From IMG/VR virus record IMGVR_UViG_2537562013_000016, positions 1 to 9,704 of that record: a DNA stretch of 9,704 nucleotides; one strand, given 5' to 3'. Origin of the DNA: a virus (Duplodnaviria > Heunggongvirae > Uroviricota > Caudoviricetes). A model generated the notes under the pieces. That model had not been told where the DNA came from, did not search any database, and was given only the letters and a program-made list of their open reading frames with translations. The position numbers and the translations under genes are program-made. Every line of letters begins with the position of its first letter. The first letter of the stretch is position 1. Shown here one piece after another: positions 1-5,307 of the stretch.

Positions 1-596
1 TCCTTCATTTCTCGACGTTTTGGCCTAATATTACTATGTAGTGTCATGAAATCACGAAGATATTTATTCATCAGTTCTGTATCTGAAATTGAACTATGGA
101 ATTTTATTGATGCAAAAATATTTAAAGAGGGAACAAACCAATAATAAGCGGGCTCACCCCATATAACATTTTCACCATCTAACTCTTCATCAGCACTGTA
201 CAAACGATCATCACTTAAGGCAGAGTCAGAGCGAATACCATAAACTCCATTCCCATTTCCAATTGCTCGCCATAAAATTACAACATAATCGCCTGTGCTC
301 TCGTTACGCTCAATTCCCTTCAAGTAAACTTTTTTCCTTGAAGAATACCCGGGAGTATTGTCATCCCAAAGTAATGTATCTGCCAATGAAGTCCTACTTG
401 AGAACCAAGTATGTAAGGACTCCAGCATATCGGCCATCATCAACGGCTCATAATATGAATCACCTCTCTTATGGAATCCTAATTGTTTATATTTGAAAAA
501 AGTGACCAGTCCTTCGCTCATTTGCGCACCATTAGTTGAAGTTGAATGCTTCGATTTTAGAGAAAATCTAACCAGAAGAAGATGTGTGATGAACAT
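1..596 (-). CDS. Hypothetical protein, N-terminal part only (runs off the left edge); AT-rich cargo gene in the psu/cos-to-int variable region
   Basis: My own minus-strand translation shows an open frame with no stop from ATG 596-594 (AAGGA 9 nt upstream) or ATG 521-519 down to position 1; protein begins MSEGLVTFFKYKQLGFHKRGDSYYEPL... Absent from the ORF track because it has no in-window stop. GC is visibly lower than the P4-like core. No motif recognised. Confidence 0.5.
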   Translation of the reverse strand, partial: MFITHLLLVRFSLKSKHSTSTNGAQMSEGLVTFFKYKQLGFHKRGDSYYEPLMMADMLESLHTWFSSRTSLADTLLWDDNTPGYSSRKKVYLKGIERNESTGDYVVILWRAIGNGNGVYGIRSDSALSDDRLYSADEELDGENVIWGEPAYYWFVPSLNIFASIKFHSSISDTELMNKYLRDFMTLHSNIRPKRREMK

Positions 597-634
597 TTAA
601 TCATGTCCTTAAATTAATGCAACCTTCGTGCGCA

Positions 635-653
635 GTGCTTTCCCCGCCTCGCC
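635..653 (-). other. cos: cos site: 19-nt P2/P4-type cohesive end sequence
   Basis: Plus strand reads GTGCTTTCCCCGCCTCGCC, the exact reverse complement of the P2/P4 cohesive end GGCGAGGCGGGGAAAGCAC as I recall it; located just past the 3-prime end of psu as in P4. Confidence 0.8.
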
Positions 654-756
654 CGCCCGCTTTGCAGGGCGGTTTTAATGCAGTTGCACAGACACGCTCA
701 GACCGCGCCGGGAATGGCGCGGTTTGCAGAAAATGAGGCAGGGAAACGCATGCAAA

Positions 757-787
757 GCCATGCACCTTATCGATGCATGGCTTTTTT
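757..787 (+). terminator. Intrinsic terminator-like hairpin between cos and the psu 3-prime end
   Basis: GCCATGCA (757-764) / TGCATGGC (774-781) 8-bp stem, 9-nt loop, followed by TTTTTT (782-787) on the plus strand; on the minus strand the same hairpin is preceded by an A-run and followed by TTTG, so it may also weakly terminate the psu transcript. Confidence 0.5.
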
Positions 788-817
788 CAGTAAAATCGGA
801 CGGATTTTCGGGGAGTT

Positions 818-1390
818 TTACACAGACTGATGTGATGCCAGTTGCGCACTTTTACGCGAAAAAATCATGTTCTGCGCAGGGGTGAATTTTTCACGGCTGT
901 CATCCACCGAAGCCGCGTCAGGCCTGAATCCGATGGTCGTTAAAATGTCGCTATCCTGTGCGGAATAATTAATTTTTTCCCCCTTCGCAAGCCAGGACAG
1001 AAGGGCTTCACGCAGGGCATCTGTGGCACGCTGTATGGCACAGTTTCGGGCAATGTCCGTCAGTTCACTGTAGCCCATCAACTCCGGTGCCAGTGCGGCC
1101 GCCATTACTGTGCCGTGCTGCTGCATAAAATCATTCAGCCGGTCGCGGATGCTGATGTGCTGAACGGCTTCATGCGAACGAATATAACGACCGGCGGCCT
1201 GATTCACCTGCCATTTTCTGACTTCGATAATATTGCGTAATTCGTCCAGGCGACTGACGTTTCTGCCTTCTCCTGACAGAAGCCGCAGGTATTCCTGTTC
1301 GGCCGCTGCCAGCTCATTTTTGCGTTGCAGCCATGCTGCTTTGTTATTCTGACAGGTGTCAAAGGCCTGCTGTAAGGCTGTGCTTTCCAT
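818..1390 (-). CDS. psu: Psu polarity-suppression / capsid-decoration protein (190 aa)
   Basis: ORF track 818..1390 (190 aa, same size as P4 Psu); N-terminus MESTALQQAFDTCQNNKAAWLQRKNELAAAEQEY matches my memory of P4 Psu; last gene of the sid-delta-psu order, next to cos. Confidence 0.9.
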   Translation of the reverse strand: MESTALQQAFDTCQNNKAAWLQRKNELAAAEQEYLRLLSGEGRNVSRLDELRNIIEVRKWQVNQAAGRYIRSHEAVQHISIRDRLNDFMQQHGTVMAAALAPELMGYSELTDIARNCAIQRATDALREALLSWLAKGEKINYSAQDSDILTTIGFRPDAASVDDSREKFTPAQNMIFSRKSAQLASHQSV

Positions 1391-1463
1391 CGTTATCTCT
1401 TTCTCATCATGCTGAAGAATAAAAATACGGTGTGCGGCGACGGCCGGTGTTAACCGGCAGCCC

Positions 1464-1964
1464 TCATTCCAGACGCAGCGAATATGATTGTGTTTTTAAG
1501 CGTACTGGCGGCAGTTCCTGTTTTTCATACAGGCGTTCTGCCAGTTCGTCCGGCGTGACCGGGCGGACAATGAAACGGTTGATGGTCTGAAGCGTTTTAA
1601 ACACCAGACCACAGCCCGGATCCGTGCACACATAAAAACGCTCGGTGACTTCCTGAGACAGACGCCGCGATGTTCTTGACAGTGCAAGGCCTTTACATCT
1701 CCGACAACAATATCCGGTAACAAGCATTCTTTTCGGGCGTTTCATACTGCCGGAGGCTGACGTCAGTGAATCGCGGTATCTCTGTTTGCCTGAAATGTAT
1801 TCCATTCCTGAATCTTTACTGTCAGAGAAAAAGCTTTCACTCGCTTCAAATGTCGCAGAGCAATAAATATTCCGGCACTGTGCAATCATTATCTTGGTGC
1901 CATCGTCCATGAAATGTGCGCGACGGGTGTGAGCAACATGTCCACACGACGGGCAGTAAATCAT
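1464..1964 (-). CDS. delta: Delta late transcriptional activator (duplicated Ogr-type zinc finger, 166 aa)
   Basis: 166 aa as in P4 Delta; two Cys-rich repeats (CPSCGH...CRNIYC and CCRRC...CTDPGC) typical of a fused Ogr dimer; ATG 1964-1962 overlaps the sid stop 1963-1961 (ATGA overlap, translational coupling). Confidence 0.9.
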   Translation of the reverse strand: MIYCPSCGHVAHTRRAHFMDDGTKIMIAQCRNIYCSATFEASESFFSDSKDSGMEYISGKQRYRDSLTSASGSMKRPKRMLVTGYCCRRCKGLALSRTSRRLSQEVTERFYVCTDPGCGLVFKTLQTINRFIVRPVTPDELAERLYEKQELPPVRLKTQSYSLRLE

Positions 1965-2695
1965 GACAGCAGCCCTCTGGCCTTAAGCTCTGCTCCCTGC
2001 TGGTCTATTTTGTCCTGCCACACCTTGCGCTGTGCCGGTGTGCCTGCCACCTCATAATCCATGTGCGGAAGTGTTGCCGCTGACAGTCCGGTCAGCCGGA
2101 GAACCGGCTCGCCGGTGAGGCTGATTTGCATCTGTTTAATTTTCTGTTCCAGCGATGATTTCACCTGCTGCATGACAGCCTTTTCCGGTGCGACGTAGCC
2201 CTGATGGCCGGTGGTGTTGGCGAGCGGATTTTCCTGTACCAGGATACTCAGATGCATTGCCCGGACAAGCGCCTCACAGGTTTCATTCAGGGCGTGTTCC
2301 AGCTCATGCTCTGCATACAGACTCAGAAGGTGATGATGTGCCTTCCGGTAGGCGGTGGCCGTACTGTCACACGCCCCTTTCAGGCGTTCACGTTCGAAAT
2401 TCAGCACCACGGCCAGATTGTCATATTCCTGTACCAGCTCCCTGCGTGCCACGCGCTCAATGTGGCGCTGTTTCAGCTCGTCGCTCAGGACACCACCGGC
2501 TGCACGAAAGGCCGTGCGCCAGTCGTCAGCGTCGTTTCCGTCGGCCTGCGCCAGCGCATTTTTTTCCTGCTCTGCCCGTTCAATGGCCGTGACGGTCTCA
2601 TCCATCAGGCGGGCGTTCTCAAGATGGGCGGCTCTGGCCTTTTCCAGTTGTGCCAGCGCGGGTTGCAGATATTCAGGGATGGTGTTGTCAGACAT
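1961..2695 (-). CDS. sid: Sid external capsid size-determination scaffold (244 aa from ATG 2695; track ORF starts at GTG 2713)
   Basis: ORF track 1961..2713; the ATG at 2695 has a strong GAGGAG Shine-Dalgarno 7 nt upstream and gives 244 aa, the size of P4 Sid; first gene of the sid-delta-psu operon downstream of two Delta-type sites. Confidence 0.85.
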   Translation of the reverse strand: MSDNTIPEYLQPALAQLEKARAAHLENARLMDETVTAIERAEQEKNALAQADGNDADDWRTAFRAAGGVLSDELKQRHIERVARRELVQEYDNLAVVLNFERERLKGACDSTATAYRKAHHHLLSLYAEHELEHALNETCEALVRAMHLSILVQENPLANTTGHQGYVAPEKAVMQQVKSSLEQKIKQMQISLTGEPVLRLTGLSAATLPHMDYEVAGTPAQRKVWQDKIDQQGAELKARGLLS

Positions 2696-2729
2696 TTTCC
2701 GGCTCCTCGTCACTTCAGGTTAAGAAAAT

Positions 2730-2785
2730 TGTGACGTACACCGGACAACAACACGACGCATTGCAGATGTGCCAGCCCTGACACA
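2730..2785 (-). promoter_or_regulatory. P_sid-type late promoter region with two Delta/Ogr binding motifs (TGT-N12-ACA)
   Basis: TGT(2730-2732)-N12-ACA(2745-2747) and TGT(2768-2770)-N12-ACA(2783-2785). Relative to a predicted minus-strand start near 2721 their centres fall at about -18 and -55, the arrangement I recall for P4 Delta-dependent promoters. Confidence 0.6.
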
Positions 2786-2864
2786 GGAGACTCATCCTCA
2801 GACCGGCAAGCCAGGAAAAGGTCGCAGGAAAAACCGGCTTACTGTTTGTTTTTTTATATTTTAC

Positions 2865-2968
2865 TGTTCACCTCTGTTCACCTTAAGAAAAAAGATAAGT
2901 AATACAGTAAGTTAAAGGTTGAACAATAGCAGTAATGACTGTTCACCGTCTGTTCACCACTGTTCACC
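2865..2968. repeat. ori-like iteron cluster: five direct TGTTCACC octamers plus one degenerate inverted copy, flanked by an AT-rich tract
   Basis: TGTTCACC at 2865-2872, 2875-2882, 2940-2947, 2951-2958, 2961-2968 (the last three at 10-11 bp spacing); GGTTGAACA at 2917-2925; AT-rich stretch 2979-3060 directly downstream (possible unwinding element). The same octamer fills the crr-like repeats after alpha. Confidence 0.7.
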
Positions 2969-3126
2969 CGTTGATGGACTTTTTGTGCTGTTTATTACTT
3001 TTTATTTTTATTAATTCACTGAAATAAATAAGAAAAAACAATTTGTATTTCACTATAAAAAATTCCAGGTCCTTCAGAACCCTTTGAGACCCTTCCAGTC
3101 CGGATGGATAAAAAACACACAGCCAT

Positions 3127-3144
3127 TGTAAGGTTGCCGGAACA
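3127..3144 (+). promoter_or_regulatory. Delta/Ogr-type site of a P_LL-like late leftward-operon promoter upstream of vis
   Basis: TGT(3127-3129)-N12-ACA(3142-3144); predicts a plus-strand start near 3190, about 395 bp upstream of the predicted P_LE start, matching the P_LL to P_LE spacing I recall for P4. No clean second site found at -18. Confidence 0.45.
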
Positions 3145-3246
3145 AATTCCCCCTGTTGCGTCTGCTGAAAATATTCACAAAATAAAGCGCTACCCGAAGC
3201 CGGACGGACTTATCCGGTGCTGTATGGACATTAACGAGGTAGCCCG

Positions 3247-3513
3247 ATGCAAGCTGTTTTTTCTTCCCCGTCTCCCGCCCCTGTTACGCCACTGATGCCG
3301 CTGCCGGACATCACGCAGGAGCGTTTTTTACGTCTGCCGGAAGTGATGCACCTGTGCGGCCTGTCACGCTCGACCATCTATGAACTCATCCGTAAGGGGG
3401 AATTTCCGCCGCAGGTGAGTCTTGGCGGTAAAAATGTGGCCTGGCTGCACTCTGAAGTCACCGCATGGATGGCCGGGCGCATTGCCGGACGCAAACGGGG
3501 GTACGACGCATGA
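3247..3513 (+). CDS. vis: Vis / AlpA-family excisionase-like transcriptional regulator (88 aa)
   Basis: ORF track 3247..3513; GAGG 8 nt upstream of the ATG; protein contains the AlpA-family helix-turn-helix signature [48 protein letters not shown]. Confidence 0.85.
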
Positions 3514-3548
3514 TGATGCCCGCTCTGCAAAAACTCCCTTTTTCTGGC

Positions 3549-3578
3549 TTGCCTTTTTCCGGCATTTGCGGATATAGT
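3549..3578 (+). promoter_or_regulatory. Strong sigma70 promoter, candidate P_LE (early/immunity promoter)
   Basis: TTGCCT (3549-3554), 17-bp spacer, ATATAG (3572-3577), with TATAGT as an alternative at 18 bp; predicted start near 3585; lies just after the vis stop. Confidence 0.6.
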
Positions 3579-3641
3579 TTTTCCGCTGCCGCAAAATCGG
3601 CAGCCGGGCGTGAGAACCCGAGCAATTCACAGGCGACATAT

Positions 3642-3663
3642 GACGCGCCACGCGTCTTTTTTT
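3642..3663 (+). terminator. Intrinsic terminator-like hairpin about 60-80 nt downstream of the P_LE candidate (leader attenuator or 3-prime end of a small immunity RNA)
   Basis: GACGCG (3642-3647), loop CCA, CGCGTC (3651-3656), then TTTTTTT (3657-3663); plus-strand specific. Confidence 0.5.
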
Positions 3664-3695
3664 GTGTCGCAATCAATGCCACAGAGCGCCAGATT

Positions 3696-4109
3696 ATGGT
3701 GTGGTGTGTGGTCAGTCGTGCAGATGGCATTCCGTGCATCCTGCCCGCGTCCGCTCATTATGCCGCAGAGTCAATGGTAGCTCAGGCGGGGCAGCCTCCG
3801 GGCTGGCCGGTATCCTGTGAAGCCGGTATTCTCACCCCCGTCTGGGCTATCGCCATCGAGCGTGAGAACTCCGGCGATAGCGTTATTTGCTATTCACAGG
3901 AGGCTGCCATCATGGCTACAACCCTTACCCCTTCACACCCTGAATTTGTCTTTGTGTTTGCGGCTGTCCGTCGCGCAGACCGTCATCCCCGTATCTGCAT
4001 GCTTCGCACCGTCGCCGGTGATGAACGCAGCGCCCGCCGTTCCCTTGTCCGTGACTATGTGCTCTCCCTTGCTGCCCGTCTGCCGGTGGTGGAGGTGTCC
4101 CGTGCGTAA
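3696..4109 (+). CDS. kil-region ORF of the immunity/early operon (137 aa from ATG 3696; nested 65-aa ORF from ATG 3912 with a strong ribosome-binding site)
   Basis: Same frame and stop as track ORF 3465..4109, but 3465 and 3510 lie upstream of and within the P_LE promoter and leader, so the first plausible start is ATG 3696. AGGAGG (3898-3903) sits 8 nt upstream of in-frame ATG 3912. Nested in-frame starts fit the kil/eta arrangement I recall for P4; start choice is uncertain. Confidence 0.45.
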
Positions 4110-4389
4110 TAAAAAAGCCCCTCAGACCGTCTCAGCACGTCATGACGCCCGTGAACACCTCAGCATTGAGGCTTACCATAAGCTCAACCGCGCCAGCGCC
4201 GTATCCCGGTTTGTTGGGGGTGATTTGATTCACCGTGAACTCTCCGGCCTGCATCAGCTCTACATTCCGCATATTTTCAGCTACCTGAATGAAGATATTG
4301 ATTTTGTGCTGAATGAGCTGAAAGCCAAAGGCCTGTGCCGCGATTTTCTCGCCCAGCAGAAAGACCGGGGAGACAGGACGCATGTTTGA
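4102..4389 (+). CDS. eps: Epsilon-like protein (P2 prophage derepressor homologue), 95 aa, GTG start
   Basis: Distal 95 codons of track ORF 3817..4389; GGAGG (4091-4095) 6 nt upstream of GTG 4102; no methionine codon anywhere downstream in this frame, so a non-ATG start is required; its stop overlaps the next ATG (4382). Assigned by position and size only. Confidence 0.55.
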
Positions 4390-4837
4390 TTTTCCCCAGC
4401 CCGGTGAGATTTACCGTTCTGCCGGTTTTCCCGATGTGGCCGTGGTCGGCATTCTGGAAGACGGTATTCCGTGGGAAATGCCGTCCCGCTGCCCGGACAT
4501 TGTCTGGAACCCGTACCGCCGTAAATTCAGTATCCTTGTGCGTATCCTCGCTGACGGGCGCACCACAGACATCCCGCTGGGGCGTTTTCTGCGGGAATTT
4601 ACCTGTGACCGTCCTGACCTGTTTAAACGCAGCCCCGTAAACCGGCATGCGGTACTGAAAGAAATGGCCGGAGACCCGGAATTACAGAAATGGCGGGAGA
4701 AATATCTGGATATTTACCCGCAGGACACTGTTCCGGCCAGCCGGGCGGCACCGGTGGCGCGGGAATGGCGGGAAATTCCCCGCACGGAGCCTGACCCAGA
4801 AATCACCCCGGATAACAGTTACCGCAATTATCTGTAA
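4382..4837 (+). CDS. Conserved P4-family hypothetical protein (151 aa; orf151 equivalent)
   Basis: ORF track 4382..4837; translationally coupled to the upstream ORF; position between eps and alpha and a size matching the P4 orf151 I recall. Confidence 0.7.
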   Translation: MFDFPQPGEIYRSAGFPDVAVVGILEDGIPWEMPSRCPDIVWNPYRRKFSILVRILADGRTTDIPLGRFLREFTCDRPDLFKRSPVNRHAVLKEMAGDPELQKWREKYLDIYPQDTVPASRAAPVAREWREIPRTEPDPEITPDNSYRNYL

Positions 4838-4910
4838 TTAAAAAACGACACCCGAAAAATTAAATGTGCGTATTCGCGCAGGGATACGCACGTCTTCAGG
4901 AGACGCAGAT

Positions 4911-4976
4911 ATGCCTTATCAGTTAATGCAACCGGCACGGAATGCAGTCATCTGTCACAGGGAGGAAAGCAAATGA
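4911..4976 (+). CDS. Possible small ORF (21 aa, [21 protein letters not shown]) coupled to the following gene
   Basis: AGGAG (4898-4902) 8 nt upstream of ATG 4911; stop TGA 4974-4976 overlaps ATG 4973 of the next ORF; preceded by hairpins at 4866-4891 and 4891-4905. Below the ORF-track length cutoff. Confidence 0.25.
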
Positions 4977-5293
4977 AACCCCCCTTACCGCCCGTCTTAC
5001 GCGCAGCCCTTTACCGTCGTGCTGTCGCCTGTGCCTGGCTGACCGTGTGCGAACGTCAGCATCGCTACCCGCATCTCACCCTTGAGTCACTGGAGGCGGC
5101 CATCGCCGCTGAGCTGGAGGGCTTTTATCTGCGCCAGCACGGTGAGGAAAAAGGGCGTCAGATAGCCTGTGCCCTGCTGGAAGATTTAATGGAATCCGGC
5201 CCCCTGAAGGCCGCGCCGTCGCTGTCCTTTCTCGGGCTGGTTGTGATGGATGAACTCTGTGCCCGTCACATAAAAGCGCCGGTACTGCACTGA
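4973..5293 (+). CDS. Conserved P4-family hypothetical protein (106 aa; orf106 equivalent) immediately upstream of alpha
   Basis: ORF track 4973..5293; GGAGG (4961-4965) 7 nt upstream of the ATG; ends 15 bp before alpha. Confidence 0.7.
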
Positions 5294-5307
5294 AGGAGAA
5301 CAACACC

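Follow-up and report, generated by a model that had tools for sequence, protein, structure and literature searches.

The helper recognition of P4-like satellite phages may reside in an exchangeable cassette, that is, in an array of three to five phased operators for a helper's Cox or Apl protein, located beside the satellite's replication origin, 90-130 bp upstream of its PLL promoter, with the allele present setting which helper would wake the satellite. We lean, if narrowly, toward this reading. At least five types of cassette would exist: P2 Cox, Wphi Cox, SW3-type Cox, 186 Apl, and a type referred to here as GGCCAA. The element in question, a 9,704-nucleotide (nt) stretch of viral DNA (positions 1 to 9,704 of IMG/VR record IMGVR_UViG_2537562013_000016; the 'window'), would be of the Wphi type.

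Judged by its sequence, the window is a P4-type satellite phage element, being 98.1% identical to bacteriophage P4 (X51522) across 654-7989. Its positions 2696-3246 correspond to the control region that, in a prophage of this satellite type, separates sid from vis. This 551-bp spacer, i.e., the stretch between the genes sid and vis, is the counterpart of X51522 9030-9583, which holds the P4 Psid promoter, the annotated origin, and the PLL promoter. The original prediction described the region as one of divergent, Delta-dependent late promoters with a replication origin between them, a description which finds support in homology to P4 and in the geometry of P2 late promoters, with Delta/Ogr as the predicted activators. 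A Psid-ori-PLL arrangement as such, however, is textbook P4 biology, already known from the experimentally characterised P4. The cassette is a fourth element of the region, one that the original prediction missed, and what would be new is a Wphi-like rather than P2-like array in this element as well as in about a fifth of the Escherichia coli copies. As an explanation of the whole, it is quite probable that the sid-vis spacer is made up of Psid, ori, a Wphi-type cassette, and PLL.

The helper recognition of P4-like satellites is annotated nowhere. Were this proposal true, then helper range would be readable from ~45 bp in thousands of prophages. Should alleles indeed set helper specificity, then satellite-helper pairings, and hence the spread of satellite-borne defence systems, would be predictable from sequence. 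The published lack of P4 activation by Wphi Cox would be explained as well, and orthogonal Cox/operator pairs would be at hand for the engineering of P4-based delivery particles. A literature search, from which the older literature was mostly absent, turned up no publication in which Cox specificity is connected to P4-like elements.

A putative Cox-type cassette upstream of PLL

Only one part of the spacer is sharply unlike P4, a ~45-bp patch at 3058-3102 with ~50% identity. The window otherwise follows P4 in gene order and in elements. In the comparison with P4 Psid and PLL that had been suggested along with the original prediction, the sid side (2696-2887) is 100% identical, the six origin iterons are in the same places, the half-sites of the PLL dyad are the same, and the PLL core, taken from 3145 to the vis ATG, is the same but for one base. 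Besides the patch, which lacks P2 Cox boxes, the window differs from P4 by four changes in the spacer of the PLL dyad and by a mismatch in the inverted iteron.

P4 in this patch has three 'ori type 2 repeats' (X51522), and these are three P2 Cox boxes, TTAAAGCAA, TTAAAGCCA, and TTAAAGTCA, found on the minus strand at 10-bp spacing. P2 Cox is reported to bind upstream of PLL and to activate that promoter, with the P4 prophage derepressed as a consequence, the consensus for binding being TTAAA(G/C)NC(A/C) (PMC3936717). Looked for as TTAAASNCM with at most one mismatch, there are three P2 Cox boxes in the P4 patch and zero in the equivalent part of the window, 3030-3125. A position weight matrix (PWM) for P2 cox boxes scores the P4 cassette at 35.2 versus 8.7 for the next match and, within P2 itself, locates both the Pe-Pc switch and the annotated attP Cox site; it detects no cluster at the window cassette.

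What the window has in place of the three P2 Cox boxes is a putative operator cassette (3058-3102, minus strand) for a helper recombination directionality factor (RDF) of the Cox type. Four boxes are present in exact 10-bp register: ACTGGAAGGGTC (3099-3088), TCTCAAAGGGTT (3089-3078), TTCTGAAGGACC (3079-3068), and CCTGGAATTTTT (3069-3058), all on the minus strand. Position, strand, 10-bp phasing, and a run of at least three adjacent boxes are as seen with the P2 Cox-box array upstream of P4 PLL. The sequence of the boxes, however, is not.

For the Cox protein of Wphi, binding to P2 boxes and activation of P4 are both reported to be lacking, its target being instead a 12-nt direct repeat in its own Pe-Pc (PMC5009727). 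That repeat (CCTAGAAAGGAC / CCTAGAAGGGAC) is recovered by an unbiased repeat search of Wphi, and a PWM built from the two Pe-Pc copies reveals another cluster next to where int ends on its 3' side, which is the same relative position as that of the P2 attP Cox site. With a Wphi-only PWM, i.e., as rebuilt from the Pe-Pc and int-side Wphi boxes together, the window cassette is the best cluster in 9.7 kb (18.7 versus 10.9). Shuffled windows reach its score in 14 of 200 cases given three boxes and in 6 of 200 given four. With the Wphi Cox operators, both those of Pe-Pc and those of int-side attP, the window cassette shares a CT-N-GAAGGG core and helical spacing, and with the attP-side site it shares the exact 12-mer GGACTGGAAGGG; its four boxes form a helically phased array resembling the repeat CCTAGAAGGGAC. 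The candidate operators differ from those of Wphi in that they belong to a promoter of a satellite and not to the switch of a helper, and in being identical to the Wphi repeat at only 6-9 of 12 positions. A Wphi-type switch is seen also in phage fiAA91-ss (NC_022750, 125-2850), a P2-like phage of O157:H7 in which cox is interrupted by an IS21 element.

Three alleles of the cassette are found in E. coli, as considered in the following section, and these were aligned locally with the 5-kb int-C-cox loci of nine P2-like phages, using cassette shuffles as null. Just three pairs are significant, with each match falling within a Cox-regulated site. These are the P4-type allele with P2 (score 18, 0 of 150 shuffles, in Pe-Pc), the window-type allele with Wphi (score 15, 2 of 150 shuffles, in the attP-side Cox site, with the above 12-mer in common), and the third-type allele with Salmonella phage SW3 (score 16, 0 of 150 shuffles, in Pe-Pc). 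The orientation of boxes is parallel in the P2/P4 and Wphi/window pairs. The Cox proteins of Wphi, P37, and SW3 are close relatives, with differences mainly around the recognition helix. A BLAST search of phages with the cassette returned chance matches only, and the Apl sites of phage 186 match none of the three E. coli alleles. Possession of an exact common 12-mer was considered as evidence standing on its own but set aside as weak, since the P4 allele and int of Wphi also have a 12-mer in common by chance.

In the P4 model, P2 Cox, which is the helper's first lytic protein, binds upstream of PLL, that promoter becomes active, and the resident satellite is derepressed. The four 10-bp-spaced boxes of the window sit 90-130 bp upstream of the predicted PLL start, that is, where P4 has its P2 Cox boxes. 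As the boxes appear to be of the Wphi-Cox type, the prediction is that helpers of the Wphi type, and not P2, would wake this element.

Alleles among E. coli copies

Of 5426 complete E. coli genomes, 1005, or roughly a fifth, contain the spacer. Aligned across 14 sequences (the window, P4, and 12 E. coli copies spread over the range of identities), it is at least 95% conserved apart from the cassette, which occurs as three discrete alleles. The three TGT-N12-ACA dyads of the region, described further below, are invariant among these 14, as are the direct iterons, while the spacer of the PLL dyad varies between a fixed TGT and a fixed ACA. Copies as similar as these do not allow a strong test of conservation, so satellites with Sid of 56-67% identity were added.

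Each allele, 47-48 nt in length, was searched for in the complete E. coli genomes. The P4 type (P2-like) was found as 480 copies in 439 genomes, the window type (Wphi-like) as 253 copies in 237 genomes, and the third type (SW3-like) as 395 copies in 373 genomes, with all three together accounting for 1128 of 1211 spacer copies. To the left of the cassette is a haplotype block (window 2990-3045; alignment columns 360-400) which separates P4-type copies from those of the window and third types. Because of this linkage, the segment that is exchanged may be not 45 but about 150 bp in length, and would then include the dyad spacer and an AT-rich stretch in addition to the cassette.

Scans of IMG/VR employed patterns derived from the matches themselves, and as such indicate only how rare the motifs are outside of satellites and matching phages. 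The third-allele/SW3 pattern was found in 22 satellites and 2 SW3-type switches and in nothing else. The window-allele/Wphi pattern was found in 16 satellites, 8 Wphi-type attP sides, and 5 unrelated contigs.

Arrays of divergent satellites

Satellites that are more divergent from P4 have other arrays at the position of the cassette, 140-190 bp upstream of vis. In three, these consist of TTTGCCA boxes with 10-11 bp spacing. An Apl PWM, made from twelve operators as read from the two annotated Apl-binding regions of the phage 186 record, scores the three arrays at 33.2, 28.9, and 36.2, versus 18.0, 13.7, and 15.3 for the next-best matches of the respective loci, with 0 of 60 shuffles reaching such scores. 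The two sites of phage 186 itself score comparably, at 34.6 and 34.3. The Apl arrays of phage 186 (pR-pL and attP) are, that is, like those of these divergent satellites, and such arrays are not present at the window cassette. The same PWM does pick out a cluster elsewhere in the window, at ~255-300 with a score of 21.2, which is probably due to chance.

Two additional satellites (L085 and L087) possess at the cassette position (~1060-1110) five (T/A/C)GG(C/T)CAA boxes of exact 10-bp spacing. These would represent the fifth, GGCCAA type, and they have no good match to P2, Wphi, or SW3 Cox boxes nor to 186 Apl operators. RDFs in general require that at least three operators lie side by side in helical phase (PMC7498355), and the arrays of the divergent satellites conform to this behaviour.

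Late promoters to either side of the origin

Three perfect TGT-N12-ACA motifs had been claimed, two on the sid side and one on the vis side, and these are found exactly, at 2730-2747, 2768-2785, and 3127-3144. Those on the sid side had been placed at about -18 and -55 from a start near 2721, in agreement with which their centres are at -17.5 and -55.5, given a +1 at 2721 on the minus strand. The Psid core (2721-2733, minus strand) consists of a -10-like CACAAT (2733-2728) and a start predicted at A2721 from geometry, i.e., relative to the dyads and to the annotated P2 late promoters. The dyad at 2768-2785 is the predicted activator site for Delta/Ogr, while that at 2730-2747 is a predicted, proximal Delta site which is the same in P4 and in all 12 E. 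coli copies. The promoter-proximal half-site of this second dyad, reading ACA in the sid direction, shares bases with the -10 hexamer. Delta reportedly leaves footprints at -55 on all P2/P4 late promoters and at -18 on Psid.

The PLL core (3178-3192, plus strand) likewise has a -10-like hexamer, CAAAAT (3178-3183), along with a start predicted at ~3189-3192. The dyad at 3127-3144, also a predicted Delta/Ogr activator site, is centred at ~-55, that is, at about -54.5 with +1 near 3190. Both promoters would accordingly possess a dyad some 55 bp upstream of a start that is predicted from a -10-like hexamer. For comparison, in the P2 record a single annotated activator site has its centre 55.5 bp upstream (-55.5) of the PO start and equally of the PP start, and the PF site is at -57.5. 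No sigma-70 -35/-10 promoter was found in 2600-3350 on either strand, as is expected of activator-dependent promoters.

The Ogr-dependent late promoters of P2 (PP/PO, PV, and PF) thus resemble those of the window, with dyad centres at -55 to -58, no -35, and a weak -10, and PP/PO are divergent also. P2 employs, however, one imperfect dyad (TGT-N12-CCA) for two divergent promoters that are 111 bp apart, whereas the window has a perfect dyad for each promoter, a second Psid dyad at -18, and predicted starts that are 470 bp apart with the origin in between. The P2 PV promoter, too, by eye appears to have an N11 dyad.

In the divergent satellites, the -55 dyad of Psid is perfect in six of six (Sid 56-67% identical), found at the same distance to the sid ATG, and embedded in spacers that differ, for a consensus of TGTG-N10-CACA. 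At -18, perfect dyads are confined to the P4 clade and a single Salmonella element. In the other five of the six the motif is TGT-N12-AGA, which is explained by its promoter-proximal half falling within the -10 hexamer, i.e., within CACAAT or instead CAGAAT. The -10 block of PLL, GAAAATATTCACAAAATA, is kept and the iterons stay in place. At -55 of PLL, these satellites have a TGTGGTG-N3-CACCACA dyad with N11 or N13 spacing instead of N12.

Five of the divergent satellites (L083-L087, ~2235-2495), with Sid 56-65% identical, encode a single-domain Delta of 81-87 amino acids (aa) versus the 166-aa tandem form, and do so together with TGT-N12-AGA at -18 of Psid. A tandem Delta may be linked to a two-site Psid. 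In L082 (positions 1-1500; Salmonella enterica GCA_013807005.1), it is not ori and vis that precede sid but alpha and a 129-aa open reading frame (ORF), encoded on the same strand as sid, a module order unlike that of P4, and both Psid dyads are still perfect.

The cognate activator is encoded by the window itself, as delta (1464-1964, minus strand), a 166-aa tandem Ogr/Delta zinc-finger activator. This Delta is judged to be intact because 163 of 166 residues are as in P4 and both Ogr_Delta zinc fingers (Pfam PF04606, two stretches) are present. Psid, as a leftward promoter without a -35, would be turned on by satellite Delta or helper Ogr at the -55 dyad, with a second dyad at -18. PLL, as a rightward promoter with a single Delta/Ogr dyad at -55, would drive vis and the downstream replication operon.

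The original prediction was correct in that PLL has no clean second motif: the sole other candidate is a one-mismatch site at 3154-3171, centred at -27.5, with no further perfect or convincing dyad found near PLL. Its suggestion that PLL activation might be weaker as a result is not supported, since this overlooks the known second input into PLL, which is the helper Cox-box array found directly upstream.

The replication origin

The origin-like iterons that had been noted between the divergent promoters are real. They consist of five exact copies of TGTTCACC (2865-2872, 2875-2882, 2940-2947, 2951-2958, and 2961-2968) along with one inverted, one-mismatch copy (2918-2925), and are the type I iterons that in X51522 are labelled 'ori type 1 repeat'. 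Allowing up to one mismatch, TGTTCACC occurs 23 times in the window versus 7.9 expected, a number that 0 of 200 shuffles reach. In X51522, the interval from sid to ORF88/vis is precisely where a rep_origin with six 'ori type 1 repeats' is annotated, at the positions at which the cluster is found here, and crr is placed after alpha. The alternative that the sid-vis iterons are instead crr is ruled out on that basis.

The second cis-acting replication region, crr, is present as well, at 7688-7989. This sequence aligns to P4 crr, which is annotated in X51522 and X05623 and has two 120-bp repeats with the same iterons, these recurring in the window as two sets 182 bp apart. Encoded in cis is the alpha primase-helicase, the origin-binding protein (5308-7641, plus strand; 768 of 777 residues as in P4 alpha). 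Adjoining the iterons of the spacer is the AT-rich stretch, 2990-3050, which is 87% A+T and is likely the unwinding region of ori. Alpha would act on the six TGTTCACC iterons and the adjoining AT-rich stretch, in cooperation with crr, 4.8 kb away; for P4, the annotation of its record and published work hold both the initiation of replication at this site and the binding of iterons by alpha to be established. The inverted iteron at 2918-2925 is degenerate in the window (TGTTCAAC), with the base in question polymorphic among E. coli copies (GGGTGAACA, GGTTGAACA, and GGATGAACA), and the five direct iterons never vary.

Alternative readings

Rather than serving in helper recognition, the variable patch could be part of the replication origin, bound by alpha or by a host replication factor, with its alleles reflecting replicon specificity or simply neutral drift. 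X51522 does label the three P4 repeats 'ori type 2 repeat', does so inside of rep_origin, and these repeats adjoin the AT-rich stretch. A replication role is nevertheless argued against because nothing on the replication side changes along with the patch: whichever allele is present, the type I iterons stay the same, and the alpha proteins of P4-type and window-type elements share 99% identity. Nor do the alleles look like drift, being discrete replacements that keep the 10-bp periodicity. Each matches a helper Cox/Apl operator, and binding upstream of PLL has been reported for P2 Cox (PMC3936717). We consider an origin role for the patch to be improbable. Somewhat more improbable still is that the cassette is a site for the satellite's own AlpA-type Vis, serving in autoregulation of PLL and with alleles tracking Vis specificity. 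Vis would be a natural enough candidate as a DNA-binding excision/regulatory protein that is encoded just downstream, and RDFs do bind helically phased direct repeats (PMC7498355). An identical Vis (WP_001149160.1), however, is annotated at 11 of the 12 E. coli loci, among which the P4, window, and third types of cassette are all represented, and because the same accession accompanies all three alleles the cassette does not look to be a Vis-specific site.

As to the dyads, it is scarcely credible that the three TGT-N12-ACA motifs are there by chance and lack a regulatory role. Their number across the window is not by itself significant, with five observed versus 2.2 expected and at least five seen in 16 of 200 shuffles, and the two additional perfect matches, at 4833 and 8515, are without obvious role. 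Three within 415 bp, though, has a Poisson probability of 1.3e-4 (lambda 0.095, for at least three, in a region that was picked after the fact). In addition, the three are found at -55 or -18 relative to starts predicted from -10-like hexamers, as in annotated P2 promoters, have constant half-sites with variable spacers, and are the motifs of the P4 promoters. A more limited claim, which is unlikely though less so, is that the -18 motif on the sid side arises merely from the -10 hexamer together with a chance TGT, such that Psid would have a single functional dyad, as in P2. The P2 promoters indeed have one activator site apiece, the promoter-proximal ACA of the -18 motif is part of CACAAT, and in five divergent satellites a TGT-N12-AGA motif goes with a -10 of CAGAAT. 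The TGT half, on the other hand, is at the same position in seven of seven lineages examined, the dyad is perfect both in the P4 clade and in a Salmonella element, and a Delta footprint at -18 of Psid has reportedly been seen.

Returning to the exchangeable helper-recognition cassette, and to the description of the spacer within which it is set, a number of points weigh against these. Across the window as a whole, the Wphi match is of no more than moderate significance (P about 0.03-0.07), and it depends on which boxes are chosen. A PWM from the two Wphi Pe-Pc repeats alone was rejected as too crude, 37 of 100 shuffles reaching the score, and chance 11-12-mers occur between unrelated pairs. 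A window allele and a Wphi-type helper are co-resident in one strain. Strains 120899 and 103605, however, have a third-allele satellite with a Wphi-type helper, so that co-residence in these three strains is not allele-matched. The switch of the helper resident in RM8385 matches no allele. Co-occurrence thus provides no support. In addition, complete E. coli genomes yielded no full-length switch of the SW3 type, although its putative partner allele is common there. On the promoter side, transcription starts are predicted from geometry, and the -18 dyad is weaker as an independent site than the -55 sites, because its promoter-proximal half overlaps the -10 and is AGA in five of six divergent satellites. 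For this element the argument is, moreover, sequence-based throughout: it is from sequence elements, identity to P4, conservation, allelic replacement of the cassette, and likeness to helper operators that we infer transcription starts, binding by Delta/Ogr, alpha, and Cox, and a change of helper specificity.

Other genes and features of the window

The remaining genes of the control region's two operons are highly similar to those of P4. To the left, sid (1961-2695, minus strand), the first gene of the Psid operon (sid-delta-psu), encodes a product with 243 of 244 residues as in P4 Sid, and psu (818-1390, minus strand) one with 185 of 190 residues as in P4 Psu. To the right, vis (3247-3513, plus strand), the first gene from PLL, corresponds to ORF88, an AlpA-family helix-turn-helix protein (Pfam Phage_AlpA; 87 of 88 residues as in P4). 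To the 3' side of vis, Rfam identifies the P4 immunity RNAs, all above gathering score: c4-a1b1 (3572-3624), isrK (3585-3662), and the C4 antisense RNA (3770-3857).

Beyond 7989, similarity to P4 was not found in the window. The integrase located 3' of crr (8439-9630) is not P4 int and is split over two overlapping ORFs. The first of these, 8439-9275, encodes the arm-binding and central domains along with the beginning of the catalytic domain, and the second, 9154-9630, the remaining catalytic domain, which suggests an integrase of a different type that is frameshifted or pseudogenised.

At its other end, the window begins with ~600 bases that are AT-rich and unrelated to P4. These are followed by a stretch, 630-695, that is 90-95% identical to the cos region of P2-like phages, with 1-695 as a whole being at the position of the variable hotspot that adjoins cos in P4-like elements. 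Lastly, a search of genome contigs for loci related to Sid returned a single locus. A Sid 100% identical to that of the window is encoded by URND01000141.1, a 6.8-kb contig labelled 'uncultured Clostridiales bacterium', which probably represents binning contamination by an E. coli satellite.

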